Origin: an uncultured Gammaproteobacteria bacterium
GTDB taxonomy: Bacteria; Patescibacteriota; Microgenomatia; Daviesbacterales; UBA10151
NCBI GenBank assembly: GCA_964415615.1
Contig: CAYQAW010000007.1
Location: 1 to 59,103 of the forward strand
Length of the DNA: 59,103 nt
Direction of reading: 5' to 3'
In this document: positions 6,124 through 54,122 of the stretch, in pieces
Numbering within the stretch: the stretch's first letter is position 1
Layout: each line of letters starts with the position of its first letter
The notes under the pieces: model-generated
Database searches by the model: none
Told to the model about the DNA's origin: nothing
What the model saw: only the letters and a program-made list of their open reading frames with translations
Translations under genes and position numbers: made by a program

Positions 6124-9123
6124 TTAAGCAGCCTTGAGTTTATCCCACTGTCTTTGCATGTCTAAAATAACTCTCTCTTCTTGAGTAACTGCTTCACCTA
6201 CTTCACCTGCTTCAAACTTATTAGCTATTCGAGATACTCGGTCAATCACTGTAACAAATAGTGATTGCATAGCATGTCTAAATTCATTGTCGTGATCCAT
6301 TGACCAGTTATGTGCCACCTCATGAACAAAGGTACTCATAGCTTCTGTAAATTGAGTATTAAAAAGAGATTCATGCATTCCGATAGCTTTTTGTCCCAAA
6401 TTAATTCCCTTACTCCCAGTTCCTCTATATAAAAATAAATCATTTGGTAGGGCAACACCTGTAGTCAATTGCGTATATAATCTTAGCAAACCTAATTGAG
6501 CAAGTTGTCTTTCATTTGGATCAAATACAACCTCAAAATCATCAATCTCATCTTCGGAGGGACTCATTCGGTCAACAATATCTGAGAGCTTTCCAGCAAG
6601 TGCTCCAAGAATTTTATCTTCTGGTGATTCATCACGTATCACGTAAACACTCGCAATCTCAGCTTGGTTTTGTTCGTTTATCAACTCGAGTAAATGTCTC
6701 CCTGTAAGATAACCAGCATTATCACCTAACTGCCCATAAAATTGCCCAGAGTTTCTCCATTGTAAATATTTTTCAAAAACAGTTGATCCTGTTAGAGCTT
6801 GGGGCTGAACTTCTGGCACTAATTCCTCAAGTTTATTAACTGCATCTAAAATACCAGGCAATTGAGCCTCCATTTGCCCTACTCTTGCTTTTTCGGCATC
6901 AGACATCGTTGCTTCTTTATCAACTATAAAACCCTTACTTTCGACTTCAGGTAATTCAGGTTGAGATACAGGAACACGCCCAAATTCTTGTTTTAGTTGC
7001 TCCCTTTGTTGAATAATAAGCCTGTCCTCATCTGTTAAGTCAGCAGAATTTTTTCCTATTGCGTTTAGATAAAGTCTTTCTTGTTCAGGAGTCCATGCTT
7101 TTACTTGTATTGCACGGTCTATATCTATTTCTGTAACTCTATTATCCTCACCTTCAGATTGAGGAGTAATATTAACTACATTTGGGGTGGTACCCTCAAC
7201 AAACCCTCCTTGTACAATACCTGAAACACTTGGTCCAGGTGAAATTGGCGAACGTTGAAATACATCTTTAAATGACTGGAGGTATTGATCTGTAAGCTCC
7301 ACTTCGACAAATAAGCCTTCTTCATTTTCATTCTGAACATTACGTGCCAAGAGAATCCTTTCTTTTACAACTTGGTCGTAATCCATCCCAAAAGTGGTAA
7401 CAAATTCACCTTGTGAGGTAAAAATTTTCTTAAATATTCTATTTTGGAGTCCATAAGCCGCCATTCCTCTTAACAAATATAAAAGTTTTTGATCGCCTTC
7501 TTGTGGTTTTGGAAGAGCATGAAAAAGAAGTTCTTTTTTAATACCCCCTTTTAATTTAATCCTAATAGTATCTGGCTTACCTTCTCTTGATTCAACTGAG
7601 ATTACTTGTGGCGATAAGCGCTCACCTATCAAATGAATGAATTCAGCTGGATCTCTTATGGTAGAAAAATCTTCATGAGCTACTTCCATACCATATTCTT
7701 GAGCAAATCGCTCTTTTTGATATTGTGGGAGTGCTGGAGCTTCGTTGCTAGCTGCCTCCACTGCACTTAGTTTGCTACTAGCTCTGGGCATTCCAATAGA
7801 TTCCATATAAGATGGGCAAATTACAAATCCCTTTTCTTCCAACTCATGAACTTGACTTTCACTTACTCCTCGATCCCAAGCGATATAATTTTTTCCACCA
7901 AAGAGTTGTTGATATTCTGCCTTATCATATCCTCTATAAGGTAATTGCCCCACTAATTTCTCGATTACAACAAACGCTCCTTTTCTTTCAAAACTGTAAC
8001 CTGCGTCAACATGGCCTGCCCAAAGATACTCTGAACGCTTTACTTGCTCAACAAGATCACTTTTTTCCATTCCTCTGACCATATCATCAAGGTAGTAACC
8101 CAAATCAAAGGAAGTTACAGGAGGTCTATCTATACTCATTCTATATTCCAGATTATTTAATTGAATTGTTACTCCTTCTGGTCCCATCCAATAATTTTCG
8201 GCAGAAGTACCCTTATCTTTATAATTCATAACTTGGCCGTTAATGAATAAACGTCCACGGGTAGGAACTAAACCTTCAGATTTAGGAAGCCATTTTATTG
8301 CTCCATGTCTATTTTGATAATCCATACTCTGTAAGTAGGGATTTTCCCTTGATACTCCTAATGTTGGAAGTTGCTGTAATGCTTTTATAACTTCTGCATT
8401 GTCAGTTTCAATAATATATGCGTTTTTGCCAGTCTTCGGCGCTTCCTGAACATCTGCTAGCAGCCAGTCATGCTTTACCACATAAGCGGGATTTTGACCA
8501 TGTAGACTTATCCATTCTCTATTTACATCAACGGCTTTTGCTAATCTATAATCAACAGTCCATCCTTCCCCTTGAATCTGAAATTTATGTACTCCAAAAT
8601 CTCTTAGGAAACGTATCGCTGTTTGTTTCAAGCCAATCCCATTGCCTCCTGCGGTATTCATATTTTCAGGTTTATCAGAATGGGGACTTAATACCCCTGT
8701 AGGATCTTCAAACGGCCAGTCGCCTTCAATCCGAAATCTTTTAGCTCCATGACGCGCATCTTCAACTATAAACCTCACTCCATTTAATGTGCCTGGATCT
8801 TGGGGGTTATGATCTACAAAGTTTTGCACTAATTCTCTTGTTAGCCATGCAGAGTTATATTCGTCTCTAGATTTATCTAAAAAGCTATCTGTTGCTATAG
8901 CATGCGCATCTATCCCTCGTTCTTTAAAAAAATATTGCAGAAGTTTTTGGTCAGTAATGACACCTTCTATATGTGCTTCTGCAATAGCTCCTTCTTCGGG
9001 AGGCGTACCTGGTGTTGTTGGGGTAGGTGTTCCTTTTCTGCCAAAAAACCTATCTCTAAATCCAGCAAACCTTGACCTTCCACCAGATGCTTCAGCATTT
9101 TCTGTCCTCATGGGATCGGCCAT
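6124..9123 (-). CDS. GHKL-type ATPase fused to a C-terminal HEXXH (zincin-like) metallopeptidase domain
   Basis: 'RELVQNFVDH' N-box, 'AGGNGIGLK' G-box, C-terminal 'FVHEVAHNWSMDHDNEF'. Confidence 0.65.
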   Translation of the reverse strand: MADPMRTENAEASGGRSRFAGFRDRFFGRKGTPTPTTPGTPPEEGAIAEAHIEGVITDQKLLQYFFKERGIDAHAIATDSFLDKSRDEYNSAWLTRELVQNFVDHNPQDPGTLNGVRFIVEDARHGAKRFRIEGDWPFEDPTGVLSPHSDKPENMNTAGGNGIGLKQTAIRFLRDFGVHKFQIQGEGWTVDYRLAKAVDVNREWISLHGQNPAYVVKHDWLLADVQEAPKTGKNAYIIETDNAEVIKALQQLPTLGVSRENPYLQSMDYQNRHGAIKWLPKSEGLVPTRGRLFINGQVMNYKDKGTSAENYWMGPEGVTIQLNNLEYRMSIDRPPVTSFDLGYYLDDMVRGMEKSDLVEQVKRSEYLWAGHVDAGYSFERKGAFVVIEKLVGQLPYRGYDKAEYQQLFGGKNYIAWDRGVSESQVHELEEKGFVICPSYMESIGMPRASSKLSAVEAASNEAPALPQYQKERFAQEYGMEVAHEDFSTIRDPAEFIHLIGERLSPQVISVESREGKPDTIRIKLKGGIKKELLFHALPKPQEGDQKLLYLLRGMAAYGLQNRIFKKIFTSQGEFVTTFGMDYDQVVKERILLARNVQNENEEGLFVEVELTDQYLQSFKDVFQRSPISPGPSVSGIVQGGFVEGTTPNVVNITPQSEGEDNRVTEIDIDRAIQVKAWTPEQERLYLNAIGKNSADLTDEDRLIIQQREQLKQEFGRVPVSQPELPEVESKGFIVDKEATMSDAEKARVGQMEAQLPGILDAVNKLEELVPEVQPQALTGSTVFEKYLQWRNSGQFYGQLGDNAGYLTGRHLLELINEQNQAEIASVYVIRDESPEDKILGALAGKLSDIVDRMSPSEDEIDDFEVVFDPNERQLAQLGLLRLYTQLTTGVALPNDLFLYRGTGSKGINLGQKAIGMHESLFNTQFTEAMSTFVHEVAHNWSMDHDNEFRHAMQSLFVTVIDRVSRIANKFEAGEVGEAVTQEERVILDMQRQWDKLKAA

Positions 9124-9183: not shown

Positions 9184-10071
9184 ATGTCAGCACAAAGACA
9201 ACCAGAGTTTGTAAGTGGTGTAAAAAATGTAGCTGCTCCTGATGGATCTTCTTTTGACATCCTAAGAGGAGCATCTGAAGTTACGACTAATCTCAGAGGT
9301 AATGCTTTAGTTCGAATGAGAGAAATAGTACGAGTTAACGAACCAGAAATCCTCCATTTCCTCAATGCTGGACCTGGAATATCCGCTGAGTATGCTATGT
9401 CATCAGGAATTATGCATTCTAAGAAGCCAGGAGTTAAAGCAGACTTAACCAAAATATCTGTTGAAGAACATCTAGCTGAAGGTGATCGTTGGGGAGCAGT
9501 ACATATGCTCGCTTATGCAAAAGCGGCAGAACTACCACTAATTGAATACGGGGAACCTTTTGTAGCAGAGCAATACGATATTTCATTAGAAGAAGGTGAT
9601 CCTGGTGAAGCTTGGCGTATTGCCCGCACCATGCTATCAGAAGGAGACAAGATAGCAAAAATAGAGCCCGAAGTACAAGAGCATGCAACTCAAGCTTGGG
9701 CTGCCAGAGAAAAAAGGGCATTTGAGCTTCATGCAGAAGAAGTATTAGCTAGAACTGATCAGCATGAAGGTGCAAGAGAAGACTGGGACCTTCGAAGTAT
9801 CTTTGAAGAATTAAGATTCCGCCAAGATGGTGGTTTTAATAGTGAGATCCCTAGTGAATTAGCTAAAAGAGTTGCGGAAAAGGTTGTTCAACAAGACTTG
9901 CAAACAAAAGGCAGAGAATGGACTGCTATTATTGATGCAACTGAAGCAAAAATGTCCAATGAATATATAGCTCAACTTAGAGGTCATGTTCCGTCAACAG
10001 GTTTTGAGAAAGTTAAAAATTGGTGGAGTGGAATTAAAGCTAGACTAGAGACTATAATCCCTCGGCAATAA
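9184..10071 (+). CDS. Hypothetical helical protein
   Basis: 295-aa ORF divergent from the 999-aa gene across 60 bp. Confidence 0.65.
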   Translation: MSAQRQPEFVSGVKNVAAPDGSSFDILRGASEVTTNLRGNALVRMREIVRVNEPEILHFLNAGPGISAEYAMSSGIMHSKKPGVKADLTKISVEEHLAEGDRWGAVHMLAYAKAAELPLIEYGEPFVAEQYDISLEEGDPGEAWRIARTMLSEGDKIAKIEPEVQEHATQAWAAREKRAFELHAEEVLARTDQHEGAREDWDLRSIFEELRFRQDGGFNSEIPSELAKRVAEKVVQQDLQTKGREWTAIIDATEAKMSNEYIAQLRGHVPSTGFEKVKNWWSGIKARLETIIPRQ

Positions 10072-10221: not shown

Positions 10222-10800
10222 TTAAACCTCAACTAAGCTTTCTTCTTTTATAGCTTCCTTAAACAGTTTTTCCGAATCTTCAGCCTCTTTATTTAATACA
10301 TCTCTTACAAATCCAGCTATAGCATCAGCTAGTCTTGTTAACGAATTATTTTCATCCCTGCTTACTCCTTGAACCTTTCTAGTAGGAACACCAAGTTTTC
10401 TAAGCTCGCTTCCATATTCCTGCCTTTTGGATTTAGCCAAACCATCAACATAAACTAAGGTGGTATATTCATGAGGCTCCTTAAAATGAATAGCTTTAGC
10501 AATACCCATAATTGTTGCCATATCATAATTGACCTGTTCTTTATAAACTGTGTAGCGAAGTTTGCCTCTAAAAACCTTACAAGAAAAGACTCTCTTCATA
10601 TAATTTAGTCTGCGGTTATGTTCAGCCTTACCCCATTTAAATTTTCCTTTACCGCTATCCTTTTCTATTTCTTCACAAAGATTTAATAATTCATCCCGTT
10701 CCTTGTCAGTAACCACTATAGAGACAACAAACACATCACCTTTTGTATCCTGACCAGATTCATCCACATAACAATAAAGTTTTTGCTTTACATCATTCAT
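10222..10800 (-). CDS. DUF3800 family protein (RNase H-like fold)
   Basis: 'CYVDESG', 'VYVDG' and 'RLADAIAG' acidic motifs. Confidence 0.85.
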   Translation of the reverse strand: MNDVKQKLYCYVDESGQDTKGDVFVVSIVVTDKERDELLNLCEEIEKDSGKGKFKWGKAEHNRRLNYMKRVFSCKVFRGKLRYTVYKEQVNYDMATIMGIAKAIHFKEPHEYTTLVYVDGLAKSKRQEYGSELRKLGVPTRKVQGVSRDENNSLTRLADAIAGFVRDVLNKEAEDSEKLFKEAIKEESLVEV

Positions 10801-14728: not shown

Positions 14729-14782
14729 AATCCAGGTTACAGTTTACAGTTAACAGTTAACAGGTTACAATTAACCCAGCTT

Positions 14783-15633: not shown

Positions 15634-16266
15634 ATGTTCAAAAAGTCTCTTTTGACCTTGGCCATCATCCCTTATTTAGTTAACCCTTTCCCTGACAACT
15701 ATCTGCTTGCCCGAAAAGAGATGTCTTTAGACAATCGTTACAGTAATCAATTTGTAAATAATGTTTTCAAAGATAATATCTTACTAAACCTGGCCTACAT
15801 GACAGGCAGGGTGACAAAAGCCTCAGACATTAAATGGGATGAAATAGTCAAACCCTTTCAGTATGAATTTAAACTGGATCCCAATAAAACTTTTGCTTTT
15901 CATGAGGATGTAAAAGATAAGTATAAAGCAAGCTTAGTAAAAACCACCAATGCCCATTTTAACTCTGCTGAAGGCTTTAAAACTGATGGATATTTGTTTG
16001 GAGATGGAATCTGTCATCTTGCTTCTTTGATAAATTGGGCAGCAAAAGAAGCAGGTTTGGAAGTTGAAGCACCAACCAATCATGACTTTGCTATCATCCC
16101 TGATATTTCCAAAGAGTATGGAGTATCTATTTATTCTTCACCATTCTCTAAAGGCTCAAATGCCCTGCAAAATTTATATATAACTAACAATAAAGGCAAA
16201 CCAATTACTTTCAAGTTTGAGTATTATAATAACAATCTAAAAGTATCTATTGTTGAGCTAAATTAA
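15634..16266 (+). CDS. VanW-like domain protein
   Basis: 'GDGICHLAS', 'PTNHDF', 'LYITNNKGKPI'. Confidence 0.75.
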   Translation: MFKKSLLTLAIIPYLVNPFPDNYLLARKEMSLDNRYSNQFVNNVFKDNILLNLAYMTGRVTKASDIKWDEIVKPFQYEFKLDPNKTFAFHEDVKDKYKASLVKTTNAHFNSAEGFKTDGYLFGDGICHLASLINWAAKEAGLEVEAPTNHDFAIIPDISKEYGVSIYSSPFSKGSNALQNLYITNNKGKPITFKFEYYNNNLKVSIVELN

Positions 16267-17037: not shown

Positions 17038-18330
17038 ATGCCTCAAAAGCCACCTGCTGAGCACCATGATCATGGGATATTAAAATTTCCTGAGGGGTTT
17101 TTGTGGGGAGCTGCCACATCTGCTTATCAGGTAGAGGGTAATAATACCAACGCAGATTGGGAAGAATTTAAAAGCGCAGGCAAAGCCTGTGATCAATATA
17201 ACCTTTATGAGCAAGATTTTAAGCTAGCAAAGGAACTAAATCATAACTCTCACAGGCTCTCTATTGAATGGTCCAGGATAGAACCCAAAGAGGGAGAATT
17301 TGACTGCTCAGAAATTGAGCACTACAAAAAGGTATTACAATCTTTAAAAGATAAGGGTTTTACTGTTATGCTAACTTTATGGCATTTTACCCTGCCTAAA
17401 TGGATAGCAGATAAAGGTGGCTGGGAAAACAGCAAAACTCCCTGGTATTTTGAAAGATTTGTCAAAACTATTGTTCCCCAAATTGCTGAGTATGTTGATT
17501 TATGGGTAACTTTGAATGAACCTGGGGTATATGTTTATGATGTATATGTTGAAAAAGTCTGGCCTCCTGTCAAAAAAGGTTGGTTCGGACAAATCAAGAC
17601 TTTTTTGAATCTGGTTTCTGCCCACAAAAGGGTCTACAAATACTTACACTCCACTTTTCCTGCAGGCAAACCTGTAGGCATTGCCAACAATATTTTATCT
17701 TTTGAATCATTCCATAAACACTCAATCAGGGAACAATTGGCAGTTTTTCTAAATGATGTTTTTGTAAATCATCTGTTTTATATATTAACTGTCAAGACCC
17801 ATGATTTTTTGGGGATTAATTATTATTTCCATGTCCGTTTCAAAGGTAAAGAACTAACAGCACAATCTCAAAATATCACAGGAGCAACTCATGATGTATC
17901 TGATTTAGGCTGGGAAATTTACCCTGAGGGAATATTTGAAGTACTGACTGATTTTGCTGATGGCATACCTATATATATTACTGAATGTGGGATTGCCTCT
18001 ACCAATGATGACAGAAGAAACAGGTTTTTAATTGCTTATTTGCAGGAAGTAGCCAGAGCTATAAAATCAGGTGTTAATGTAAGAGGATTTTTTTACTGGT
18101 CTTTAATTGATAATTTTGAATGGCATTTAGGGTATAGCCCTAGGTTTGGCCTTGTCGAGGTTGATTATGAAACAGAGAAACGCCATATCAGGCCATCAGC
18201 CCTGGTGTATACAGATATTATTCAAAACAATGGAATTCCTCATGCCCTACTTCGCTTTATTGGCCACACTGTCCAGGCAGAAGAAGTTTTGGAAAAAAGA
18301 CAAAAGGAGATAGAGAAAGAATTGAAATAG
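17038..18330 (+). CDS. Glycoside hydrolase family 1 (beta-glucosidase-like)
   Basis: 'FLWGAATSAYQVEG', 'TLNEP' acid/base, 'ITECG' nucleophile, 'WSLIDNFEW'. Confidence 0.95.
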   Translation: MPQKPPAEHHDHGILKFPEGFLWGAATSAYQVEGNNTNADWEEFKSAGKACDQYNLYEQDFKLAKELNHNSHRLSIEWSRIEPKEGEFDCSEIEHYKKVLQSLKDKGFTVMLTLWHFTLPKWIADKGGWENSKTPWYFERFVKTIVPQIAEYVDLWVTLNEPGVYVYDVYVEKVWPPVKKGWFGQIKTFLNLVSAHKRVYKYLHSTFPAGKPVGIANNILSFESFHKHSIREQLAVFLNDVFVNHLFYILTVKTHDFLGINYYFHVRFKGKELTAQSQNITGATHDVSDLGWEIYPEGIFEVLTDFADGIPIYITECGIASTNDDRRNRFLIAYLQEVARAIKSGVNVRGFFYWSLIDNFEWHLGYSPRFGLVEVDYETEKRHIRPSALVYTDIIQNNGIPHALLRFIGHTVQAEEVLEKRQKEIEKELK

Positions 18331-18741
18331 CTTTCAGCTATCAGTCATCAGTCGTCAGACATGAATACACATAAATTTAGAAAACTTAATGTGTGGCAAA
18401 GATCTATCCAGTTAGTATCTTTAATTTATAAAATAACATCTAAATTTCCTGCTGAGGAAAAATACGGTTTAATAGATCAGATCCGCAGAGCAGCAGTTAG
18501 CATTTGTCTAAATATTGCTGAAGGTTCAGGTTCTGGATCTGATGCAGAATTTACCAGGTTTCTACGGATAGCACAAAGATCTGCTTATGAAGTAATTGCA
18601 GCATTAGAAATCGCTATCAATTTGGAAATGGCAGACAAAGTGATTATCGAAGGCGTCATAAGTGAAGTTGATCAAGTTAGTGCGATGCTTTCTGGACTGA
18701 TTAAAAGTCTGAAAGCTGACAGCTGAAAGCTGAAGACTATT
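18328..18741 (+). mobile_element. Heptamer-arm inverted-repeat cassette enclosing the four-helix-bundle gene
   Basis: Left arm 18328-18360 (TAGCTTTCAGCTATCAGTCATCAGTCGTCAGAC) and inverted right arm 18707-18741 (GTCTGAAAGCTGACAGCTGAAAGCTGAAGACTATT). Confidence 0.7.
18361..18726 (+). CDS. Four-helix-bundle protein (23S rRNA IVP / TIGR02436-like)
   Basis: 'FRKLNVWQRS...FPAEEKYGLIDQIRRAAVSICLNIAEG...RFLRIAQRSAYE'. Confidence 0.93.
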   Translation: MNTHKFRKLNVWQRSIQLVSLIYKITSKFPAEEKYGLIDQIRRAAVSICLNIAEGSGSGSDAEFTRFLRIAQRSAYEVIAALEIAINLEMADKVIIEGVISEVDQVSAMLSGLIKSLKADS

Positions 18742-23468: not shown

Positions 23469-24077
23469 ATGACCGACAATAAAAAACAGCTATCAGCTAT
23501 CAGCTATCAGTCTTCAGATAAAACACTTCCTGAACCAACCGAATCTGATAACCCTGCCTCTAAATGGTATGTAGTTCATACCTATTCTGGCCATGAAAAT
23601 AAAGTATCTCATACCTTAAAACAAAAGATTGAAACTGAACATTTGGAAGAAAAAATTCTGGATGTTCTAGTACCAACTCAGGAAAAAATTGAGATCAAAG
23701 GTGGCAAGAAAACCAATATTAAAGAAAAAATCTTTCCAGGATATATTTTAGTCAAAATGGTTTTGGATGATATTTCCTGGCTGGCTGTTAGAACAACTCA
23801 AGGGGTAACTTCCTTTGTAGGCATGGGCAACAAACCAACTCCTATTTCAGATGCTGAAGTTCAAACAATAGTTAGATTTGCTCAAACTGAAGCACCAATG
23901 TACAAGCAAGTCTTTTCTGCCTCAGATACAGTCAAAATTGTTGATGGTCCATTTGCTGATTTTATAGGTAAAATTGATTCAGTTGACCAGGAAAAAGGCA
24001 AAGTCAGAGTCTTAGTCTCTATCTTTGGTAGAGAAACACCAGTAGAACTAGACTTTTTACAAGTACAAAAAATCTAA
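23469..24077 (+). CDS. nusG: Transcription factor NusG, with heptamer-repeat-derived N-terminal extension
   Basis: '[11 protein letters not shown]', 'FPGYILV', KOW '[11 protein letters not shown]', 'FGRETPVEL'. Confidence 0.97.
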
Positions 24078-30258: not shown

Positions 30259-30337
30259 TAGCTTTCAGCTATCAGTCTTCAGTCATCAGACTAAAAATTT
30301 CAAAGTCTGAAAGCTGACAGCTGAAGACTGACGACTA
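30259..30337 (+). repeat. Empty heptamer-arm hairpin upstream of rplJ
   Basis: TAGCTTTCAGCTATCAGTCTTCAGTCATCAGAC-spacer-GTCTGAAAGCTGACAGCTGAAGACTGACGACTA. Confidence 0.9.
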
Positions 30338-30885: not shown

Positions 30886-30960
30886 ATAGCTATCAGTAGT
30901 CAGCTCTCAGCTATCCCGATTAAATCGGGACGACTGAAGACTGATGACTGAAAGCTAATT
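30886..30960 (+). repeat. Heptamer-arm hairpin between rplJ and rplL with a CCCGATTAAATCGGG palindrome at its apex
   Basis: Arms and central palindrome read directly from the sequence. Confidence 0.9.
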
Positions 30961-31800: not shown

Positions 31801-32509
31801 CATACTCTGCTAATAAGTATAGAATATATTGTCCCAAAGCCATTTGTCTTTTAATCCTCCAAGGCTGTAATATAAGTCTAAATAACCACTCAAATCCTAA
31901 GTCCCTCATCCATTTTGGAGCCCTGCGAACTTCACCTGAAAGATAATCAAAAGCTCCTCCCACTCCCATAGCCAAGTGCACTGGAATTTTATCTAAATTG
32001 TCAGCAATCCATTTTTCCTGTTTAACATGACCTAAAGCCACAAATAATAAATCCAAGGGGGGTATCAGACTTTTTGTATCAGCACTGGTCAACAAAACTT
32101 TAAGTGCTGGATATTTTCTCTTTAAGCACTCAGCTACCTTTTCTGCTACACCATCTTTACCTCCTAGAAAGCCTACTACAAAGCCCTTTTCTGCAGCTAC
32201 CTCAATCAGCCTCTCCATAAAATCAGTCCCGGAAAAAGTATTTTTGATTTTTCCAGACAGCTTTAGTCCAGCCCCATCAGGAACAGATAAGTCTGCATCA
32301 TTTAATATCTTTTTAAATATAGGATCTTTTTGGGCTGCCACAAGAAATTCTGGATTAGGGGTAACTACATAATGTTTCTCCCGACGAATTTCATTCGTCG
32401 AGGATCCTCGATGGAAACTACCATCGGGACAAATCCACTCCTCTACCTGAGTCAAGGCCTCATTTATATCAATGTCATCAATTTTTACTCCCAAAATATC
32501 TACTCTCAT
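31793..32509 (-). CDS. WecB/TagA/CpsF family glycosyltransferase
   Basis: 'VTPNPE', 'PDGAG', 'GVGGAFD', 'EWLFRL..QPWR'. Confidence 0.92.
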   Translation of the reverse strand: MRVDILGVKIDDIDINEALTQVEEWICPDGSFHRGSSTNEIRREKHYVVTPNPEFLVAAQKDPIFKKILNDADLSVPDGAGLKLSGKIKNTFSGTDFMERLIEVAAEKGFVVGFLGGKDGVAEKVAECLKRKYPALKVLLTSADTKSLIPPLDLLFVALGHVKQEKWIADNLDKIPVHLAMGVGGAFDYLSGEVRRAPKWMRDLGFEWLFRLILQPWRIKRQMALGQYILYLLAEYVS

Positions 32510-33633
32510 GTATTACTTTCTAATACCTTCAAGGTTTCTCTAGCGCACTTCTCCCAAGAAAATCTCTTAACATTCTCGAGTCCTATTTTAATTAGCTTGA
32601 TTCTTAATTCATGATTCATGATTCTACCCATCCCACTTACTATATCATCAATATCATAGGGATTCACATAGACCGCTGCTCCGCCAGCTGGCGGACCCCC
32701 AACTTCTGGCATACTCGATAAATTAGAAGTAATCACAGGACATCCACAAGCTTGAGCTTCTAAAATTGGCAGTCCAAACCCTTCAAAAAGAGATGGAAAA
32801 ACAAAAGCAATTGCCCCAGAATATAAAGCAGGTAACTTTTCATCAGGAACATATCCCAAAAATTTAACCCTATCCTCTATCCCCAGCTTCTTTGGTAATT
32901 TATAAATTTCATCACTCATCCAACCTTTAGATCCTGCAATAATCAGTCTGAAAGCTGAAGACTGATGACTGAAAGCTTCTATCAATCTTTCTAAATTTTT
33001 CCTTGGTTGTACTGTACCTACAAAGAGGAAGTAGTTTTGATATATTAAGTTATATTTTTTAATAATTTGACTAACTTTGAACTTTGAACTTTGAACTTTG
33101 AACTTTTCTTTATCGTAGCCCTCATAAACCACACTAATCTTCTTTTCGTCTATATGTATTTTCCTTACCAAATCTTGTTTGGTAGCTTTTGACACAGCAA
33201 TAATCTTAGTGGCAGTTTTAAGCTGCCTCTTTTGCATAAATCCCAAATAAAGCCTTTGTTTAATCTGATGCATGGAAGGCAAATATTCAGAACCTAAATC
33301 ATGAACTGTTACTACAGTTTTAAGTCCTGGCTTTTTGATCACTGGCAAAGTGTGCGATGGAACAAACAACACATCCAAGTTATCCTTAAAAGTTTGCAAA
33401 GCCAAACCCCCTTGAGTCCATAATCTAAACCAGCGAATTTCTTTGATTTGGAAATTATTAGGCAATCCTACATTACTTGTAACGATCGTGGAAGTAATTG
33501 TAGCCCTTGTGTAAATTATATAAGTATTATTCTTATCAATCCTGGCTAAAGCTTTCAGTAGTTGATAAGAATAATACTCTGTCCCTGTTTTCTTATCAAC
33601 AAACGCTCTGGATCCATCAAAACCAATGACCAT
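32506..33633 (-). CDS. Glycosyltransferase family 4
   Basis: 'RKNLERL', 'EGFGLPILEA'. Confidence 0.92.
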   Translation of the reverse strand: MVIGFDGSRAFVDKKTGTEYYSYQLLKALARIDKNNTYIIYTRATITSTIVTSNVGLPNNFQIKEIRWFRLWTQGGLALQTFKDNLDVLFVPSHTLPVIKKPGLKTVVTVHDLGSEYLPSMHQIKQRLYLGFMQKRQLKTATKIIAVSKATKQDLVRKIHIDEKKISVVYEGYDKEKFKVQSSKFKVSQIIKKYNLIYQNYFLFVGTVQPRKNLERLIEAFSHQSSAFRLIIAGSKGWMSDEIYKLPKKLGIEDRVKFLGYVPDEKLPALYSGAIAFVFPSLFEGFGLPILEAQACGCPVITSNLSSMPEVGGPPAGGAAVYVNPYDIDDIVSGMGRIMNHELRIKLIKIGLENVKRFSWEKCARETLKVLESNT

Positions 33634-34718: not shown

Positions 34719-34810
34719 AGCTATCAGCTATCAGCTATCAGCCATCAGCTTTCGGCTATCAGACTTAAATTGTGACCGTCTGACAGCTGACGACTGACTA
34801 CTGACGTCTA
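34719..34810 (-). repeat. Heptamer-arm hairpin starting at the PEGA gene stop codon
   Basis: (GCTATCA)n arm and inverted (CTGACAG/CTGACGA)n arm. Confidence 0.9.
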
Positions 34811-44596: not shown

Positions 44597-47095
44597 CTAG
44601 TTGCCAGTAACAAAGCTAACTATTTTACCAGGGATATACACAATTTTTTTCACAGATTTTCTATCCAAAAATTTCCCCACCTTTTTACTGCCTTTGGCCA
44701 TTTTTTCTACAACCTCTCTATTTCCTACTATATCCTTCTGTATCACTAATACATCTCTAACTTTTCCATTAACTTGAACAGCTATTGATATTTCTTCTTC
44801 CTCCAGGAATTTACTAGCAAATTTGGGCCAAGACTGCTGATGTATAGAGAAGCTATCAGTCTTCAGTATCGCTTCGCCCGCCTTCGGCGTGGCTTCGCTG
44901 TCAGCTGTCAGACTTTTTTCTGATTTTTTGTCTGACGACTGTGGGCCCCCGAAGGGGAAGACGACTGACGACTTTAATATCTCCCATAACTCTTCTGTAA
45001 TATGAGGCGCAAATGGAGCTAGTAGCATCAAGAAAGTTTTATACTCCTCTGCAGAGATCTCTGCTTTCCTGGAAAGATAATTCAACCATTCCATGAGGCT
45101 AGAAATAGCAGTGTTAAACTTTAACTGCTCAATATCCTCTGTCACTTTCTTAATCGTCTTATGCATTATCCTTAAATCGTTCATCGTTAATCGTTCATCG
45201 TTAATCGTTAATCGTTCCTGTAACATCCAGACTCTTTGTAAAAAGTGATATGCTCCATTAACTCCATCAGGATTCCAAGAAGTAACTATATCAAAAGGGC
45301 CTAAAAACATTAAATAAAGCCTGATAGCATCGGCACCATAACTTTTTACTTCTTCATCAGGATTGACCACATTCCCCTTAGATTTGCTCATCCTGGCTCC
45401 ATCAGGACCTAAAATCGTACCATGGTGAATCCTTTTTTTGGCATATTCATCAAAATTTATTAACCCTAACTCTTTAAAAATCATGGTAAAAAACCTGGAA
45501 TATAAAGCATGGCCTAAAGTATGCTCAGGTCCCCCAATATAAATCTCGAGCGGCATCCATTCAGCAGCAATATTTTTATCAAAGATTGCCTGGTCGTTTT
45601 CCGGATCCAGGTATCTAAAAAAATACCAGGCAGAATCCACAAAAGTATCCATAGTTTCAACTTCCCTTTTAGCAGGCCCACCACATTCAGGACATTCTGT
45701 ATTAACCCAATCCTCTGCTGTAGCCAATGGAGGCTTACCATGAGGAGCATAATCCACCTTGTAGGGAAGTTCTACTGGTAAATCTTTTTCTGGAACAGGA
45801 ACAGCCCCATCTTTATCACAATAAATCATTGGGATAGGTGTGCCCCAATAACGCTGTCTTGAGATTGACCAATCATGAAGATGATAGTTGGTGGTTCTTT
45901 TTCCTAAATTATGTTGCTCTAAATAATCTGATATTTTTTCCCTGGCTACCTTGTTTAGCAATCCATTATATTCTCCGCTATTTACCATTTCTCCATTGCC
46001 TATATAAGCTGCTTTGGATATATCCCCGCCTTTAACAACTTCTCTTATCAATAGATCAAACTTTTTGGCAAACTCATAATCTCTTTGGTCATGGGCTGGC
46101 ACGCCCATAACTGCACCTGTTCCATAGCCTACTAATACATAATCAGCTACCCAAACTGGAAGTTTCTCACCATTAATTGGACTTTTGACATAAGAACCAG
46201 TAAATACTCCTGTTTTTTCTTTATTTTCTTTTCTTTCCAGCTCGCTTTTCTTTTTTGCTTGTCGGATATACTCTTCGACCGCTAATTTTTGTTCAGGCAT
46301 AACTAAAGCGGCTAGCAAAGAATTTTCAGGACTGATAACTATAAATGTAACCCCAAATATCGTGTCCTGACGGGTACCAAAGATTTCTATGTTATCAAAC
46401 TTTATCACTATACCTTCTGATCTGCCAATCCAATCATTTTGCCCTACTCTTAAAGACTTAGGCCAATCTGCCTGAGGTGGCTCTTGCCAGAGTAATTTAT
46501 CTGCAAAAGCAGTAATCTTAAAAAACCACTGGTCAATTTCTTTTTGGACCACCTCTGTTCCGCATCTCCAACATTTACCGTCCTCAACATTTTCATTAGC
46601 AAGTACAGTTTGATCTTTTGGACACCAGTTTGACAGTAATTTTCCCCTGTAAGCCCAACCTTTTTCTAGCATTTTCAAAAAAATCCATTGATTCCACTTA
46701 TAATACTTAGGATCACAAGCTACCATAGTTTTTGTCCAATCAATTGATGTACCTAAAGTTTCAAATTGATCTCTCATCCGCTCCATATTTTTATATGTCC
46801 AGTCTCGGGGGTGAATGCCGTTTTTAATGGCAGCATTCTCAGCAGGCAGCCCAAATGCATCAAAGCCATTAGGAAAAAGCACATTAAAACCCTGCCTGGA
46901 TTTAAACCTGGCTAAAATATCACCCATGGTAAAAGTAAACCAATGACCCATATGTAGATCGCCAGAGGTATAAGGCAGCTCGACTAAAACATAGTATTTG
47001 TCTGTCGATTTAGAAAGATCAGTTAAATAAAGACTCTCCTCTCCCCACTTCTTCTGCCACTTGGGCTCTATATCTTGAGGAATGTATTTCTTCAT
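44597..47095 (-). CDS. leuS: Leucine--tRNA ligase
   Basis: 'LHMGH', CP1 editing domain 'GTGAVMGVPAHDQRD', 'RMSKSKGN'. Confidence 0.98.
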   Translation of the reverse strand: MKKYIPQDIEPKWQKKWGEESLYLTDLSKSTDKYYVLVELPYTSGDLHMGHWFTFTMGDILARFKSRQGFNVLFPNGFDAFGLPAENAAIKNGIHPRDWTYKNMERMRDQFETLGTSIDWTKTMVACDPKYYKWNQWIFLKMLEKGWAYRGKLLSNWCPKDQTVLANENVEDGKCWRCGTEVVQKEIDQWFFKITAFADKLLWQEPPQADWPKSLRVGQNDWIGRSEGIVIKFDNIEIFGTRQDTIFGVTFIVISPENSLLAALVMPEQKLAVEEYIRQAKKKSELERKENKEKTGVFTGSYVKSPINGEKLPVWVADYVLVGYGTGAVMGVPAHDQRDYEFAKKFDLLIREVVKGGDISKAAYIGNGEMVNSGEYNGLLNKVAREKISDYLEQHNLGKRTTNYHLHDWSISRQRYWGTPIPMIYCDKDGAVPVPEKDLPVELPYKVDYAPHGKPPLATAEDWVNTECPECGGPAKREVETMDTFVDSAWYFFRYLDPENDQAIFDKNIAAEWMPLEIYIGGPEHTLGHALYSRFFTMIFKELGLINFDEYAKKRIHHGTILGPDGARMSKSKGNVVNPDEEVKSYGADAIRLYLMFLGPFDIVTSWNPDGVNGAYHFLQRVWMLQERLTINDERLTMNDLRIMHKTIKKVTEDIEQLKFNTAISSLMEWLNYLSRKAEISAEEYKTFLMLLAPFAPHITEELWEILKSSVVFPFGGPQSSDKKSEKSLTADSEATPKAGEAILKTDSFSIHQQSWPKFASKFLEEEEISIAVQVNGKVRDVLVIQKDIVGNREVVEKMAKGSKKVGKFLDRKSVKKIVYIPGKIVSFVTGN
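44851..44973 (-). repeat. 123-bp palindromic composite element inserted in frame in leuS
   Basis: Near-identical to 35086-35202. Confidence 0.92.
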
Positions 47096-47120
47096 AATAA
47101 CCTGATGTTAACATAAAAGC

Positions 47121-47198
47121 CGTCAGCTGTCAGCTTTCAGTCATCAGCCTTTTAATTTTTTAAATCTGATAGCTGAAGACTGACTACTGATAGCTATT
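47121..47198. repeat. Heptamer-arm hairpin upstream of leuS
   Basis: (GCTGTCA/GTCATCA)n arm, AT spacer, inverted arm ending TAGCTATT. Confidence 0.85.
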
Positions 47199-47369
47199 TC
47201 TCTTTTCATATTCTCTTTTCACAAGCTAAACACTTTGTTATCTAATTATAATTGATATAGTTTATACATATTCTGATCTATTCTAGACTCTAGACTCTTG
47301 ACTCTAGTCTCTATTTTGTGTTCATGCGGTAATTATCTTGATTTTTTTTGATATAGAATGAGAGATTGA

Positions 47370-48338
<969 letters not shown>

Positions 48339-48339
48339 C

Positions 48340-48410
48340 GAGAGACTAGTCGCTAGAGTCTAGTAGCTAGTATAGTATCTTGACTCTTGACTCTAGACTC
48401 TTGTCACTTT
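48340..48410. repeat. Heptamer-arm hairpin of the TAGAGTC/GACTCTA family (related arm at 47281-47312)
   Basis: GAGACTAG..TAGAGTCTAG arm versus (CTTGACT/CTAGACT)n arm. Confidence 0.7.
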
Positions 48411-48428
48411 CTGTCGTATCATCTACTT

Positions 48429-49115
48429 ATGCCCACTCTGCCCTTGGATTTAACCACCCTACTGTTAATTTTTACCATCGTTTTAATCACAATTCTCTAT
48501 CTTCGTGAATATAACCAGAGAAAAAAACTTGAATCTTCTGAAGAGAGGTTCTTAGAACAATTCAAGGAGAAAGGCTGGAATACTTTACATAAATCCATCC
48601 AAAAATCTCAGGATTTACTGGGACAGGCAGAACTGGAAGGCATAAAAGTAGTAGCTGGCAGCAAAATTGAAACCTCCAAAATGGAGCAGGATTTTTCAAA
48701 AGAAATCTCTCAGTCTCTACTTGCATCTAAGCAAACTATAGCTTCTGCCCAAAATCAGCTTTTACAATTTATGACAGACTTACAAAAAAGAAGCGCTGAA
48801 TTTGAGGAAGCTAGCAAAAAAACAGGAGAACAAAGAATCAACCAGCTATTTGGCAGAATTGAAGAAAGACTAGCTGATCTGCTGGTACAGACAGAGCAAA
48901 GAACCACCTCTTCCATTGAACTGGAGTTAAAAAGCACCAGACAACTAATTGAAACTTATAAAAACGAGCAGCTTAAACTGATTGATGAAAATATTGTGGC
49001 CATGATGGAACAAACTTTAGGTATAGTCTTAAGCAAAAAACTGTCTTTAAAAGACCAACTGGATATTATTTATGAAGCACTTGAGAAAGCTAAGGTGGAG
49101 AAATTCATTGTATAA
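48429..49115 (+). CDS. Single-TM coiled-coil protein, F0 subunit b-like
   Basis: N-terminal TM, long charged helix, position in the atp operon. Confidence 0.55.
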   Translation: MPTLPLDLTTLLLIFTIVLITILYLREYNQRKKLESSEERFLEQFKEKGWNTLHKSIQKSQDLLGQAELEGIKVVAGSKIETSKMEQDFSKEISQSLLASKQTIASAQNQLLQFMTDLQKRSAEFEEASKKTGEQRINQLFGRIEERLADLLVQTEQRTTSSIELELKSTRQLIETYKNEQLKLIDENIVAMMEQTLGIVLSKKLSLKDQLDIIYEALEKAKVEKFIV

Positions 49116-49208
49116 ATAGCTATCAGCTATCAGTCTTCAGTCATCAGACAAGAAAAGTCTGACAGCTGACAGCTGACAGCTGACAGCGAAGCGATACTGA
49201 AGACTATT
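49116..49208 (+). repeat. Empty heptamer-arm hairpin filling the stop-to-start gap
   Basis: TAA|ATAGCTATCAG...GAC-aagaaaa-GTCTGACAG...GAAGACTATT|ATG. Confidence 0.92.
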
Positions 49209-49682
49209 ATGGATGACACGCTGGCCGTTATTTTAAAAGACACCTATTCCTTATCCCAACTCAAACATAGACTGAGGATCTTAAAATCCTCTCTTTTGAG
49301 AGCATTTTTTGGAGGAGAAAACCTCTCTTTTACTCCTGAACAACTAAGCTGGCTCAAATCCCTGCCCACTGAGTTTTATCAAAAATTTAACAAAGATAAT
49401 GTTTACCAAATCTTTACTGAAATTGACAAGGAGATGGGCAAACTTAAAACCTTAACTATGTATTTAACTTTTGAACCAGATGAGATGACTTTAGCCCAAC
49501 TAGGCACCTATATCAGAACCAATTTTGGTCCAAATTTCCTTTTGGATATTAAATTGAAACCAGACCTTATTGCTGGGCCTGCTTTAGTATGGAAAGGAAT
49601 TTATAAAGATTATTCTCTGAAAGCTAAACTGGAAAGTAAAAATACAGAAATTTTGCAGGAATTTAAGAAGTTCTTAAGGTAG
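49209..49682 (+). CDS. atpH: ATP synthase delta/OSCP-like subunit (divergent)
   Basis: C-terminal 'LDIKLKPDLIAG...KDYSLKAKL' resembles the delta C-domain; directly upstream of atpA. Confidence 0.6.
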   Translation: MDDTLAVILKDTYSLSQLKHRLRILKSSLLRAFFGGENLSFTPEQLSWLKSLPTEFYQKFNKDNVYQIFTEIDKEMGKLKTLTMYLTFEPDEMTLAQLGTYIRTNFGPNFLLDIKLKPDLIAGPALVWKGIYKDYSLKAKLESKNTEILQEFKKFLR

Positions 49683-49770
49683 TCGTCAGCCATCAGTTTT
49701 CAGCTATCAGACTAAAAAATTAAAAATCTGAAAGCTGACAGCTGAGAGCGAAGCGATACTGAAGACTATT
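49680..49770 (+). repeat. Empty heptamer-arm hairpin, atpH-atpA
   Basis: Arm begins with the TAG stop and ends GAAGACTATT 3 nt before ATG. Confidence 0.92.
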
Positions 49771-49773
49771 ATT

Positions 49774-51222
49774 ATGAATCAAAACGAAGTAGGTTATGTT
49801 GTATCAAGCAGGGATTTTCTAGTTTACCTAAATGGCTTCCCCACCATCAGAGTTAATGACATGGTGGAATCTGATAATAATCTCCGTGGCTGGGTTAATT
49901 CTACCCTAGAAGATAAAATTGAAGTTCTGATGTTAGATGAAGGAGAAATCAAACCAAAGCAACAATTTAAAAAACTACCTAACCGTTTAGGAATTGCTGT
50001 AGGAAATTCATTGCTAGGGCGGGCAGTCAACCCTTTAGGAATACCTATTGATGGTAAGGGCCTACTTTCCCATACTAAATCTACTGATATCTCAGAACTG
50101 GACAAAGAGGCCCCTGGAATAGAATCCAGAGAATTTATTACCACCCAATTTTTAACAGGAATAACTTTAATTGATACTTTGATTCCTCTGGGACAAGGCC
50201 AAAGAGAACTGGTTTTGGGAGATGCCCATTCTGGTAAAACAGGCTTCTTGATTGATACAGTTATAAATCAAAAAAACACTGGTGTAATTTGTGTGATAGC
50301 CTCAATTGGCAAACCTGCTGTGACAGTCAGGAATTTGATTGATACCCTAAAAAACAATGGTGCTTTGGATTATACAATTGTGGTTGCCACATCTTCTTCT
50401 GAACCAGCGCCTCTAATTTTTTTAACTCCTAAAACTGCCATGACTATTGCTGAATATTTCCAAAAACAGGGCAAAGATGTGCTGTTGATATTAGATGATT
50501 TAGGCTCGCATGCCAAAATCTACCGGGAAATTTCCCTGCTCGGCAACAAAGCCCCAGGCAGAGAATCTTATCCTGGAGATATTTTTTACCAGCATGCTCA
50601 TTTACTGGAAAGGGCTGGGAATTTTTTGCCACAATTTGGCGGAGGTTCTATCACAGCTCTACCTGTAATCGAGCTTAATTTAAATGATTTTACTACTCTT
50701 ATCCCTACAAATGTGATGTCCATGACTGATGGACATTTAATGTTTAAAGCTTCTATGCGTTCCCAGGGACAAATACCAGCCATAGATATTTCTTTATCAG
50801 TATCCAGAGTAGGCAGGCAAACTCAAAACCATTTAACTAATTTACTTTCTACTAAAATCAGGCAAGTTCTATCTGAAGCAGCAGATTTGGAAACAGTTTC
50901 CAGATTTTCTTCAGAACTACCAGCAGAAACTCAGCTGATATTAAAAAGAAGAGATTTAATCATGGAAATTTTAAAACAAGAATCTTTAACTGCTGTAGTC
51001 AAACAAATTCAAGTTATACTTCTGGCACTCCCCTTTACCAAATTCTTGCAGGATAAAAACAAAGCTTTTGTTGAAAAATATAAACCAATAATTATTGAAA
51101 ACTTTCTAAAAAATCCTGGACTTGTACCAATTACCAAATCCATCAACCAGTTAAAAAGTGACGAGGAATTAATAAAAATGCTGGAGGGAGCAGGACCAGT
51201 ACTGACAAAAATCTGCCAATAG
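49774..51222 (+). CDS. atpA: F1 ATPase alpha subunit (divergent)
   Basis: 'GQGQRELVLGD..SGKT', 'PGRESYPGDIFY', 'SMTDG', 'SVSRVG'. Confidence 0.93.
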   Translation: MNQNEVGYVVSSRDFLVYLNGFPTIRVNDMVESDNNLRGWVNSTLEDKIEVLMLDEGEIKPKQQFKKLPNRLGIAVGNSLLGRAVNPLGIPIDGKGLLSHTKSTDISELDKEAPGIESREFITTQFLTGITLIDTLIPLGQGQRELVLGDAHSGKTGFLIDTVINQKNTGVICVIASIGKPAVTVRNLIDTLKNNGALDYTIVVATSSSEPAPLIFLTPKTAMTIAEYFQKQGKDVLLILDDLGSHAKIYREISLLGNKAPGRESYPGDIFYQHAHLLERAGNFLPQFGGGSITALPVIELNLNDFTTLIPTNVMSMTDGHLMFKASMRSQGQIPAIDISLSVSRVGRQTQNHLTNLLSTKIRQVLSEAADLETVSRFSSELPAETQLILKRRDLIMEILKQESLTAVVKQIQVILLALPFTKFLQDKNKAFVEKYKPIIIENFLKNPGLVPITKSINQLKSDEELIKMLEGAGPVLTKICQ

Positions 51223-51310
51223 CTATCAGCTATCAGTCTTCAGCCATCAGACTAAAAATTTCAGAGTCTGAAAGCTGAAAGCTGAGAGCGAAGCGATACT
51301 GAAGACTATT
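51220..51310 (+). repeat. Empty heptamer-arm hairpin, atpA-atpG
   Basis: TAG stop inside the arm; GAAGACTATT directly before ATG. Confidence 0.92.
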
Positions 51311-52159: not shown

Positions 52160-52279
52160 ACAATAGAAGGTAGAAGATAGTATTTTGATAATAGAAGTTA
52201 GATAGTAGATAATTCCATCTTCTATCTTCTATATTCAAAGATCCATTTTCTATTTTCCATCATCTATCGTCAGAACATT
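52160..52279 (+). repeat. Heptamer-arm hairpin of a different family (TAGAAGA/TCTTCTA), atpG-atpD
   Basis: Purine-rich 7-mer arm followed by a complementary pyrimidine-rich arm. Confidence 0.8.
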
Positions 52280-53779: not shown

Positions 53780-53855
53780 CTTTCAGTCATCAGTCTTCAG
53801 CTTTCAGACTTTTCTGATTTGTCTGATGACTGACAGCTGATAGCTGACGACTATT
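53777..53855 (+). repeat. Empty heptamer-arm hairpin, atpD-atpC
   Basis: TAG...GACGACTATT|ATG. Confidence 0.92.
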
Positions 53856-54122
53856 ATGCAAACCTTACATGTCAGAATCATCTCCCCTCAACAACTAATC
53901 TTAGATACTACTGCTTCCTCAGTCAGCTCCAAAAACCCCCAGGGGAATTTTGATATCTTACCCCAACATGCTAATTTTATAACCATTGTAGAAAATGAAC
54001 CTATTGTGGTAAGAACGCTGGACCAAAAATCTGTAACTTTTAAATTTCCTCTAGCTATAATTTTAACAAGAGAAAATAAGGTGAGTATTTATACATATAT
54101 CCAGCCTCAATTAGATAAGTAG
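53856..54122 (+). CDS. atpC: F1 epsilon subunit, N-terminal beta domain only
   Basis: 'LHVRIISP', 'GNFDILPQHANFIT'; 88 aa, no C-terminal helices. Confidence 0.85.
   Translation: MQTLHVRIISPQQLILDTTASSVSSKNPQGNFDILPQHANFITIVENEPIVVRTLDQKSVTFKFPLAIILTRENKVSIYTYIQPQLDK

Follow-up and report, generated by a model that had tools for sequence, protein, structure and literature searches.

A heptamer-armed hairpin family in Daviesbacteria whose full copy carries a PF05635 four-helix-bundle gene

In the 59,103-nt contig CAYQAW010000007.1 (assembly GCA_964415615.1; this whole stretch is referred to as the window), a gene encoding a 121-aa four-helix-bundle protein is enclosed by two inverted arrays of tandem heptamers, and the same arms recur in the window as short hairpins lacking an open reading frame (ORF). 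We consider it likely that these sequences form a family of selfish hairpins, similar to rRNA intervening sequences and to foldback elements or miniature inverted-repeat transposable elements (MITEs), the full copy of which carries one conserved gene. The closest homologues of this ORF and of its flanking genes belong to Candidatus Daviesbacteria of the candidate phyla radiation (CPR; Microgenomates); several metagenome-assembled genomes (MAGs) of Daviesbacteria carry the label "uncultured Gammaproteobacteria" and are clearly of the same group. A cyanobacterial origin (Nostocales), which the heptamer repeats had at first brought to mind, was rejected in view of these homologues.

The protein belongs to PF05635, a large family of which no more had been known than that its members are encoded in rRNA intervening sequences and are related to Avd, the accessory protein of diversity-generating retroelements (DGRs). 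New for this family is a reproducible genomic signature: inverted heptamer flanks, arms that diverge together with the protein, and accompanying ORF-less copies. Such a signature would tie together three questions: how rRNA intervening sequences originated, what stand-alone Avd-like proteins are for, and where the heptamer repeats of many bacteria come from. It also opens the function of this large orphan family to testing.

The gene-bearing element and its short copies

The full element consists of three parts, all on the plus strand:

18328–18360, plus strand: left arm, TAG CTTTCAG CTATCAG TCATCAG TCGTCAG AC (an outer TAG, four NNNTCAG heptamers and AC)
18361–18726, plus strand: cargo gene for the 121-aa four-helix-bundle protein (PF05635 23S_rRNA_IVP, TIGR02436, Avd-like fold)
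18707–18741, plus strand: right arm, GTCTGAAAG CTGACAG CTGAAAG CTGAAGA CTATT (GT, four CTGANNN heptamers and an outer CTATT)

Directly upstream lies a GH1 beta-glucosidase gene (Pfam Glyco_hydro_1, ORF 17038–18330), whose TAG stop codon (18328–18330) is the first triplet of the left arm. The arm abuts the ATG of the cargo gene at 18361, and the right arm encodes the last six codons of that gene (the C-terminus S-L-K-A-D-S) together with its TGA stop at 18724–18726. The downstream gene, of the EamA family, starts at 18745. Reading of the sequence thus agrees with the preliminary description in the position of the gene, in the coordinates and in the arms, of which the left runs to the ATG and the inverted right one contains the stop.

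Gene and arms occur together in all eight Daviesbacteria genomes compared. Seven homologues with 83–87% identity (L001–L007) carry both arms of the window copy, the left one likewise running up to the ATG and the right one covering the stop codon. In a translated comparison, the similarity between copies at different loci was confined to the gene with about 50 nt upstream and about 30 nt downstream. The eight genomes hold the cassette at five loci: L003, L004 and L005 share one, the window, L001, L002 and L006 each have it elsewhere, and in L007 it is inverted in place between the same two flanking genes as in L003/L004/L005. These comparisons show that gene and arms were inherited, moved and inverted as one unit. 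The ratio of nonsynonymous to synonymous substitution (dN/dS) of the cargo gene among the Daviesbacteria homologues is 0.03–0.12 with saturated dS, which points to strong purifying selection on a functional gene. The non-coding left arm is almost unchanged among these homologues despite the saturated synonymous sites.

The spacing of the arms divides the family into two classes. In 510 kb of Daviesbacteria DNA the distance from the TCAG to the CTGA arm is bimodal, 3–25 nt in 14 cases and 350–367 nt in 8; all eight long cases contain the four-helix-bundle gene, no other cargo was found between arms in this DNA, and just a few unpaired arrays occur besides. A profile search detected one copy of the cargo gene in the window and none in about 350 kb of other Daviesbacteria flanks. 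Other hairpin families of Daviesbacteria have their own gene-bearing copy with matching arms: L310 with TTGATTA/TAATCAA arms in an atpD–atpC spacer, L299 with CAAAACN arms and a degenerate gene, and L209, a second, divergent gene in the genome of L001.

The window holds one full copy and ten short ones, eight intergenic and two within coding sequences. All eight ORF-less copies named in the preliminary description (30259, 30886, 34719, 47121, 49116, 49680, 51220 and 53777) are present, and their spacers are generally AT-rich, as had been stated, except at 30886, where the loop is a small GC hairpin. The short copies are as follows:

30259–30337, plus strand: empty hairpin preceding rplJ, with the loop TAAAAATTTCAAA; nearly a duplicate of the 51220 copy
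30886–30959, plus strand: empty hairpin in the rplJ–rplL spacer, loop replaced by the GC mini-hairpin CCCGATTAAATCGGG
34719–34810, minus strand: empty hairpin in the spacer between a PEGA-domain gene and mreB (both genes on the minus strand); the outer unit contains the TAG stop of the PEGA gene
47118–47196, minus strand: empty hairpin ahead of leuS, about 25 nt from its start codon
49116–49208, plus strand: empty hairpin in the spacer between ORF 48387–49115 and ORF 49209–49682; right arm with a nested GCGAAGCGATA insert
49680–49773, plus strand: empty hairpin in the spacer between ORF 49209–49682 and atpA; upstream TAG stop in the outer unit; nested GCGAAGCGATA insert
51220–51310, plus strand: empty hairpin in the atpA–atpG spacer; upstream TAG stop in the outer unit; ATG directly after CTATT
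53777–53855, plus strand: empty hairpin in the atpD–atpC spacer, orthologous to the L288 hairpin
44852–44973, minus strand: nested TCAG/CTGA hairpin, in frame in leuS, with two GC-rich mini-hairpins; adds about 42 aa
35093–35207, minus strand: second copy of the nested hairpin, in frame in the PEGA-domain gene; nearly identical peptide to the leuS copy

ORFs 48387–49115 and 49209–49682, neither of which has a Pfam match, are taken as atpF and atpH by their position before atpA. Every atp spacer in the window is filled by a heptamer palindrome, four of them of the TCAG type. The elements are situated in transcribed DNA, where they fill precisely the gap from one gene's stop codon to the start codon of the next. 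In 6 of 9 copies the preceding gene terminates at the outer TAG itself, and the next ATG follows 0–6 nt past CTAT(T). The nested hairpin within coding sequences, about 120 nt long, occupies two unrelated genes (leuS and the PEGA-domain gene), where it encodes the peptide SSVVFPFGGPQSSDK..KSLTADSEAT.KAGEAILKTDS. Compared with solved LeuRS structures, the leuS insert of 42 aa falls between the last two aligned LeuRS segments, a site that we read as the linker between the anticodon-binding and C-terminal domains. These very small CPR genomes tolerate a burst of palindromic insertions, at all junctions of essential operons and even inside leuS. Chance can be excluded as the origin of the phased arrays: the window contains 10 TCAG and 10 CTGA arrays of at least three units, and 100 shuffles contained none.

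Orthologous junctions in relatives were compared for the presence of hairpins. At the GH1–EamA junction of about 40 relatives, about 16 have no spacer at all (e.g. TAATG), an empty TCAG/CTGA hairpin is present in four (L087, L090, L093 and L110) and, in degenerate form, in L084, and several others hold palindromes of quite different heptamers; the cargo gene is found there in the window only. For the atp operon, 39 relatives were found with AtpD as the query (atpG as the query for orthologous operons gave no match), and three junctions were scored, atpA–atpG and atpG–atpD not among them. Most spacers at these junctions measure −6 to +22 nt, a minority of the relatives have TCAG hairpins or other heptamer palindromes, and the window has hairpins at all three. 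In the closest relative (L282, 83% AtpD identity) the atp junctions are tight, and its GH1–EamA junction (L082) is also free of a hairpin. Since the junctions of relatives are mostly without spacers, tightly coupled genes are the ancestral state, and the hairpins are sporadic insertions into it. Empty-site alleles in relatives, whose absence had been named beforehand as a reason to give up the idea of full and empty copies, exist at both the GH1–EamA and the atp junctions. An empty-site allele within the same population was also considered and rejected, as all contigs with the identical EamA protein carry the gene upstream and L281 is a truncated contig. At the GH1–EamA junctions of L088 and L103 just TAGCTGCTATG or TAGCTATG is present, that is, the outer ends of the element joined together; these could be collapsed remnants, excision footprints or seeds.

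The empty hairpins are also copied, as near-identical copies at non-orthologous sites show. The first 64 nt of the atpD–atpC hairpin at 53777 match the GH1–EamA hairpin of L087 at 62 of 64 positions, loop included, between genomes whose proteins are only about 76% identical, and the hairpins at 30259 and 51220 are near-duplicates within the window. The atpD–atpC hairpin is common to the window and L288 at the orthologous site. The loops of the empty copies might be remnants of the ends of the cargo gene; their similarities to those ends are so short and AT-rich that they allow no judgement.

The cargo protein and its arms across phyla

Profile searches confirmed the assignment of the protein to the family encoded in 23S rRNA intervening sequences: it matches PF05635 with an E-value of 2e-36 (124.9 bits, cut-off 33.8) over profile positions 1–106 of 106, and TIGR02436 ("four helix bundle protein") with an E-value of 1e-35 (122.2 bits, cut-off 24). 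By sequence it also matches Xanthomonas XCC0516 (2GSC; phmmer E 1e-20). A single-sequence AlphaFold (AF2) monomer model has four helices with a pLDDT of 83, and the top Foldseek matches of this model are 2GSC (TM 0.84) and 2RLD (TM 0.83). They are followed by the Avd chains of the Bordetella phage DGR (8UB7, 8UB8 and 4DWL; TM 0.74–0.77, 11–14% identity), in agreement with the Avd-like fold proposed earlier, and the PHROG profile "Avd protein of DGR" gives a weak match. XCC0516 was reported as a homopentamer (PMC4990558), and the 2GSC and 2RLD entries have five chains each. Among 77 homologues the family is mildly basic (median isoelectric point 8.9), with near-invariant polar residues E33, Q40, R43, S47, N51, E54, S74 and E77. 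Neither Pfam nor TIGRFAM profiles detected a transposase domain in this 121-aa protein, the sole ORF of the element.

The association between gene and arms extends far beyond Daviesbacteria. With flanks scored as positive at an inverted repeat score of at least 24 and period 7, 27 of 66 (41%) four-helix-bundle genes from outside Daviesbacteria lie between inverted period-7 arrays vs 3 of 260 (1%) neighbouring genes; together with the eight of eight in Daviesbacteria, these counts bear out the proposed relation of full and empty copies. One of the three control genes is the ORF of L010, a candidate for a different cargo that was rejected because it is an antisense frame of the homologous four-helix-bundle gene. 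The L010 gene itself (Planctomycetia) has TTAGTTC arms and apparently lies between two tRNA-like sequences. The hosts of the non-Daviesbacteria homologues include Nitrospirota, Desulfobacterota, Planctomycetota, Bacteroidota, Omnitrophota, Chloroflexota and other CPR bacteria. Flanking repeats are inverted in 43 of 74 cases and direct in 8, and in 60 of 67 the gene has the orientation of its upstream neighbour.

The heptamer itself differs by protein clade (AGTTCGG, ATGGCTT, AACGATG, AGTTGTT, ACAGTCG, AAGTCGT and others). One clade with AGTTCGG arms spans at least three phyla, with members in Nitrospirota, Desulfobacterota and Scalindua, and arms are common only to proteins more than about 60% identical. 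In these comparisons, the arm sequence tracks the protein clade. The strict hairpin pattern was found at no fewer than 113 loci (at least) of the species collection. Among the matches listed beyond Daviesbacteria are TCAGACN hairpins in Gemmatimonadota, Acidimicrobiia, Acidobacteriota, Chloroflexota, Thioalkalivibrio, Chryseobacterium and others (L161–L273; e.g. L192 Thioalkalivibrio, L172 Chryseobacterium, L199/L204 Gemmatimonadales and L167 Acidimicrobiia); such hairpins, with arms of 3–12 units, are widespread in high-GC phyla.

Explanations for the hairpins and their gene

The arms of the full element are 83% complementary over 23 nt. RNAfold predicts imperfect stems of about 30 bp for the family, composed of 5–8 bp helices split by 1x1 or 2x2 internal loops, with energies of −25 to −36 kcal/mol (−36 kcal/mol for the arms of the full element alone). 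The arm–arm stem is retained in the minimum free energy fold of the whole 420-nt full element, with the ORF looped out. In hosts with AT-rich genomes, four TCAG units make up 53 of 70 left arms and 49 of 70 right arms, and an outer in-phase TAG or CTA unit is present in 54 of 73 and 51 of 73 copies; these outer ends, TAG...CTA, would fit a TA target. The two kinds of array differ in their reading frames: NNNTCAG arrays have no stop codon in any frame, and CTGANNN arrays have TGA in every frame within three units, therefore a ribosome coming from either side translates the first arm it meets and terminates in the second.

In the reading that we hold to be likely, the family comprises palindromic insertions of the foldback type, in which four or five heptamers in tandem, all with the invariant core TCAG/CTGA, make up each arm. 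Once paired into the imperfect stem of about 30 bp, the arms would rejoin the upstream stop and the downstream start, and insertion into overlapping stop/start junctions would be tolerated because of this juxtaposition. A stem of this kind is what RNase III cuts in rRNA intervening sequences, and the enzyme may do so here as well. The cargo gene, to judge from its co-orientation, would be read by run-through transcription from the upstream gene, and its product would be the element's own trans-acting factor, recognising heptamer arrays, plausibly with one subunit of a homopentamer per heptamer and five units per arm. Recognition of the heptamers is suggested because the arms co-diverge with the protein and are of fixed length, and because the protein is related to Avd. 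The step performed by the protein could be recombination between arms, copying, protection or processing, and the arrangement would resemble a lone RAYT gene with the REP sequences that it serves on either side.

Several results weigh against this reading. A domain search of the neighbours found no recombinase, nuclease or reverse transcriptase in or adjoining the element, and the cargo protein has no known catalytic domain or activity. Comparison of filled and empty sites gave no clean target-site duplication. The long RNA stem looping out the ORF, which had been proposed in the preliminary description, is present in the predicted fold, but the data lend no support to selection specific to RNA: in-register variable triplets are complementary in 2.7% of cases vs 15% when randomly re-paired, and the stabilities of the sense and antisense folds, compared for a G.U signature of an RNA stem, are equal (16 vs 16, p 0.5). 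As in-register triplets pair less than the re-paired controls, covariation as support for the stem was rejected; perfect palindromes seem to be avoided. The stem as such may not necessarily be the target of selection, and a role of the arms in DNA, where they would present a protein with inverted sets of binding sites as foldback transposon ends do, is just as conceivable as one in RNA. The empty copies may have arisen from full ones by deletion, or the gene may have entered existing hairpins, e.g. by arm recombination. In favour of the reading, among the matches listed the cognate gene is present in 4 of 5 Daviesbacteria genomes with at least four strict-pattern hairpins, a count confounded by phylogeny and MAG completeness. 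Against it, hairpins are seen as well in genomes for which these matches showed no cognate gene (JACPEX, MFCP and others), evidence that is weak either way since the MAGs are incomplete, and no four-helix-bundle gene lies within 8 kb of the TCAGACN hairpins listed, which is likewise weak either way.

A host regulatory system could account for part of the picture. The four-helix-bundle protein would then be a global RNA-binding regulator and the hairpins its operators in operon spacers such as those of atp and rplJL, tuning cistron stoichiometry, mRNA stability or translational coupling; its own gene would lie in one of these hairpins so as to be autoregulated. The position of the hairpins exactly at cistron junctions of highly expressed operons speaks for it, as do the strong purifying selection on an apparently single-copy gene, the tightly fixed length of the arms and the persistence of some hairpins at orthologous junctions despite saturated synonymous sites (e.g. 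atpD–atpC in the window and L288). However, occupancy of the junctions is sporadic: most relatives, the closest one included, have overlapping or adjacent genes there, and others have unrelated palindromes. An operator role would explain neither the in-frame copies in leuS and a second coding sequence nor the near-identical copies at non-orthologous sites, and the unit of gene plus arms changes its locus and orientation. We therefore regard a regulatory system as unlikely. It is likewise unlikely, in our judgement, that the gene is a passive passenger, i.e. that the palindromes spread alone (by slippage, recombination or an unrelated enzyme) and the gene merely survives in their loops, for instance through stem-aided processing or expression, with no interaction between protein and arms. 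Such a view would be compatible with the many families of heptamer palindromes, most copies of which are ORF-less, with hairpins in genomes where the cognate gene was not found among the matches listed, and with a protein in which no catalytic motif for work on nucleic acids is known. Opposed to it are the observations that the four-helix-bundle gene is the only cargo seen in the 510 kb of Daviesbacteria DNA, that the association recurs in more than 10 phyla with lineage-specific arms co-diverging with the protein, that several hairpin families each have a cognate gene-bearing copy, and that the nearest structural relative, Avd, is a pentamer binding nucleic acid and reverse transcriptase.

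Heptamer repeats mis-assembled around a small ORF, or plain chance, have a negligible probability. Short-read Logan contigs do break exactly at the left arm, so the arms are repetitive for assemblers, but the same architecture is present in eight independent MAGs from separate studies and, outside this group, in dozens of genomes belonging to other phyla, the shuffled sequences contained no such arrays, and the right arm and the downstream gene are retained in independent assemblies of the identical protein. The four Logan contigs in question (L275–L278) encode the identical protein and all begin 2 nt before the ATG, which is why we conclude that assemblies break at this arm. In practice, heptamer arms can be expected to break short-read assemblies, and the arrays may be mistaken for other repeat systems. 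In a CRISPR-discovery paper, "23S rRNA IVP" is among the proteins linked to CRISPR arrays; that link might reflect the repeat arrays flanking its gene.

The selfish-hairpin reading can be widened. Stand-alone PF05635 proteins in general might be trans-acting factors of a pan-bacterial class of mobile hairpins, whose arms would be tandem heptamers with one pentamer subunit each and which would spread without a conventional transposase, e.g. by arm-guided recombination or by copying through host enzymes. The class would include the 23S rRNA intervening sequences, the operon-junction palindromes of CPR bacteria, the high-GC TCAGACN hairpins and possibly the heptamers of cyanobacteria and Beggiatoaceae. 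We put this forward tentatively, as a possibility that we would not at present favour.

Related systems and further repeats in the window

A close parallel is offered by the rRNA intervening sequences. That of Coxiella 23S rRNA has a 28-bp terminal stem with the S23p ORF in the loop, and tandem heptameric repeats of variable copy number directly before the ATG; it is cut by RNase III (PMC4990558). ORFs of the 23S_rRNA_IVP family are also found in rRNA insertions of CPR bacteria, and short, ORF-less versions of rRNA intervening sequences exist; these sequences are considered selfish and horizontally spread. The present element shares with the intervening sequences of Leptospira, Coxiella burnetii and CPR bacteria the protein family and the long terminal inverted-repeat stem that loops it out. 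It differs in lying between protein-coding genes of an operon rather than in an rRNA gene, in having arms that consist wholly of phased heptamers, and in its many ORF-less copies in mRNA spacers and some in coding sequences. No rRNA gene was found at the element: Rfam at gathering thresholds gave only five tRNAs in the window, and a known RNA family for the element was ruled out by the same search. By analogy, then, the element works like an rRNA intervening sequence with an S23p ORF but fails the defining location in rRNA. In the searchable literature, which cannot prove that no other case exists, the association of heptamers with this ORF was found only for Coxiella, and neither a general association of gene and heptamers nor an ORF-less family in operon junctions was found described.

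Likeness to several families of dispersed palindromes is evident as well. In REPIN/REP sequences with RAYT, one gene per genome is flanked by inverted copies of a repeat that is dispersed as ORF-less hairpins, and the type of repeat goes with the protein clade. RAYT, however, is an HUH (IS200/IS605-like) transposase, whereas the protein of the element is a 121-aa helical bundle without a known catalytic site, and REP sequences are not tandem heptamers. Correia elements (NEMIS) of Neisseria and bacterial MITEs resemble the element as short palindromic insertions that are co-transcribed with their neighbours and polymorphic in presence, and like MITEs the element has many short copies sharing termini with a longer gene-bearing one. 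For the element, neither a DDE transposase partner nor a clear TA duplication was seen, although the outer ends read TAG...CTA in about 70% of copies, and its cargo is not a transposase. The hairpins of Correia elements are cut by RNase III, and the foldback transposons of eukaryotes have arms of short tandem repeats with only occasional internal genes. Rickettsia palindromic elements (RPEs) are in-frame palindromes in essential genes, where the added peptide is tolerated, and in this they are like the hairpins in leuS and the PEGA-domain gene; RPEs differ in that their units are not heptamers and that no gene-carrying version of them is known.

Avd in solved DGR complexes is a pentamer that works with RNA and reverse transcriptase. 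The cargo protein has the same four-helix-bundle fold at the low identity given above; no reverse transcriptase adjoins the element, for which reason we do not regard it as a DGR, and template/variable repeat pairs were not searched for. Heptamer direct repeats have been described as the TAACTGA repeats of Beggiatoaceae and the STRR (short tandemly repeated repetitive) sequences of cyanobacteria, intergenic and unexplained, and also in Bacteroidetes; the Beggiatoa genome has one inverted set among 170 heptamer arrays. Like the arms of the element they are intergenic tandem heptamers near start codons, in distant phyla, and the CTGA core recurs in TAACTGA. The published descriptions are of direct arrays, in contrast to the inverted pairs of the element, and no link of them to four-helix-bundle genes has been reported. 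PADLOC gave no match that would connect the cargo protein to a defence system. Carriage of the element by phages was rejected, as no relatives of the protein were found in viral contigs.

Within about 3 kb of the cargo gene, the window encodes, besides the GH1 and EamA-family proteins, a weak VanW match, an unassigned ORF and a transglycosylase/transpeptidase (penicillin-binding protein). A Shine-Dalgarno-like motif precedes just 7 of 56 window genes, and its lack before the cargo ORF means little because most window genes are without one. TATAAT-like boxes occur about 10–20 nt before many ATGs of the window (e.g. ORFs 6124–9123, 9184–10071, 10222–10800 and 15634–16266); together with the scarcity of Shine-Dalgarno motifs this suggests that leaderless or short-leader mRNAs are frequent in this genome.

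Half-arms of four TCAG or CTGA units are translated within coding sequences at 23487–23517 (NusG N-terminus) and 32948–32972 (ORF 32506–33633, minus strand; SHQSSAFRL), with no partner arm nearby. Small GC-rich inserts are nested in the heptamer arms or loops at 49187–49200, 49750–49762, 51290–51302, 30912–30928 and 55083–55099, and also in L003, L168 and L288; examples are GCGAAGCGATA, CCCGATTnAATCGGG and GGTCCGAT..ATCGGACC, and some are interrupted further, as in L288 with GCGAAACCGCGCCAAAGGCGGGCGAAGCGGTA. They give the impression of a further layer of very small insertions aimed at heptamer arrays.

Tandem Repeats Finder (TRF) detected period-7 arrays throughout the window. Further arrays and palindromes of this period lie at 52156–52268, 48336–48408, 54107–54240, 47282–47313, 47565–47594, 33073–33106, 45175–45216, 54506–54573, 55069–55119 and 14733–14775. 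They are built of unrelated units: TAGAAGG/CTTCTATC, CTAGAGA/TCTTGAC, ATTGAAA, CTTCACC, AACTTTG, AATCGTT, AAACTAC, CTACCAA and CAGTTTA. The same families are also seen at the atp and GH1 junctions of relatives, and some of them have a four-helix-bundle gene of their own.

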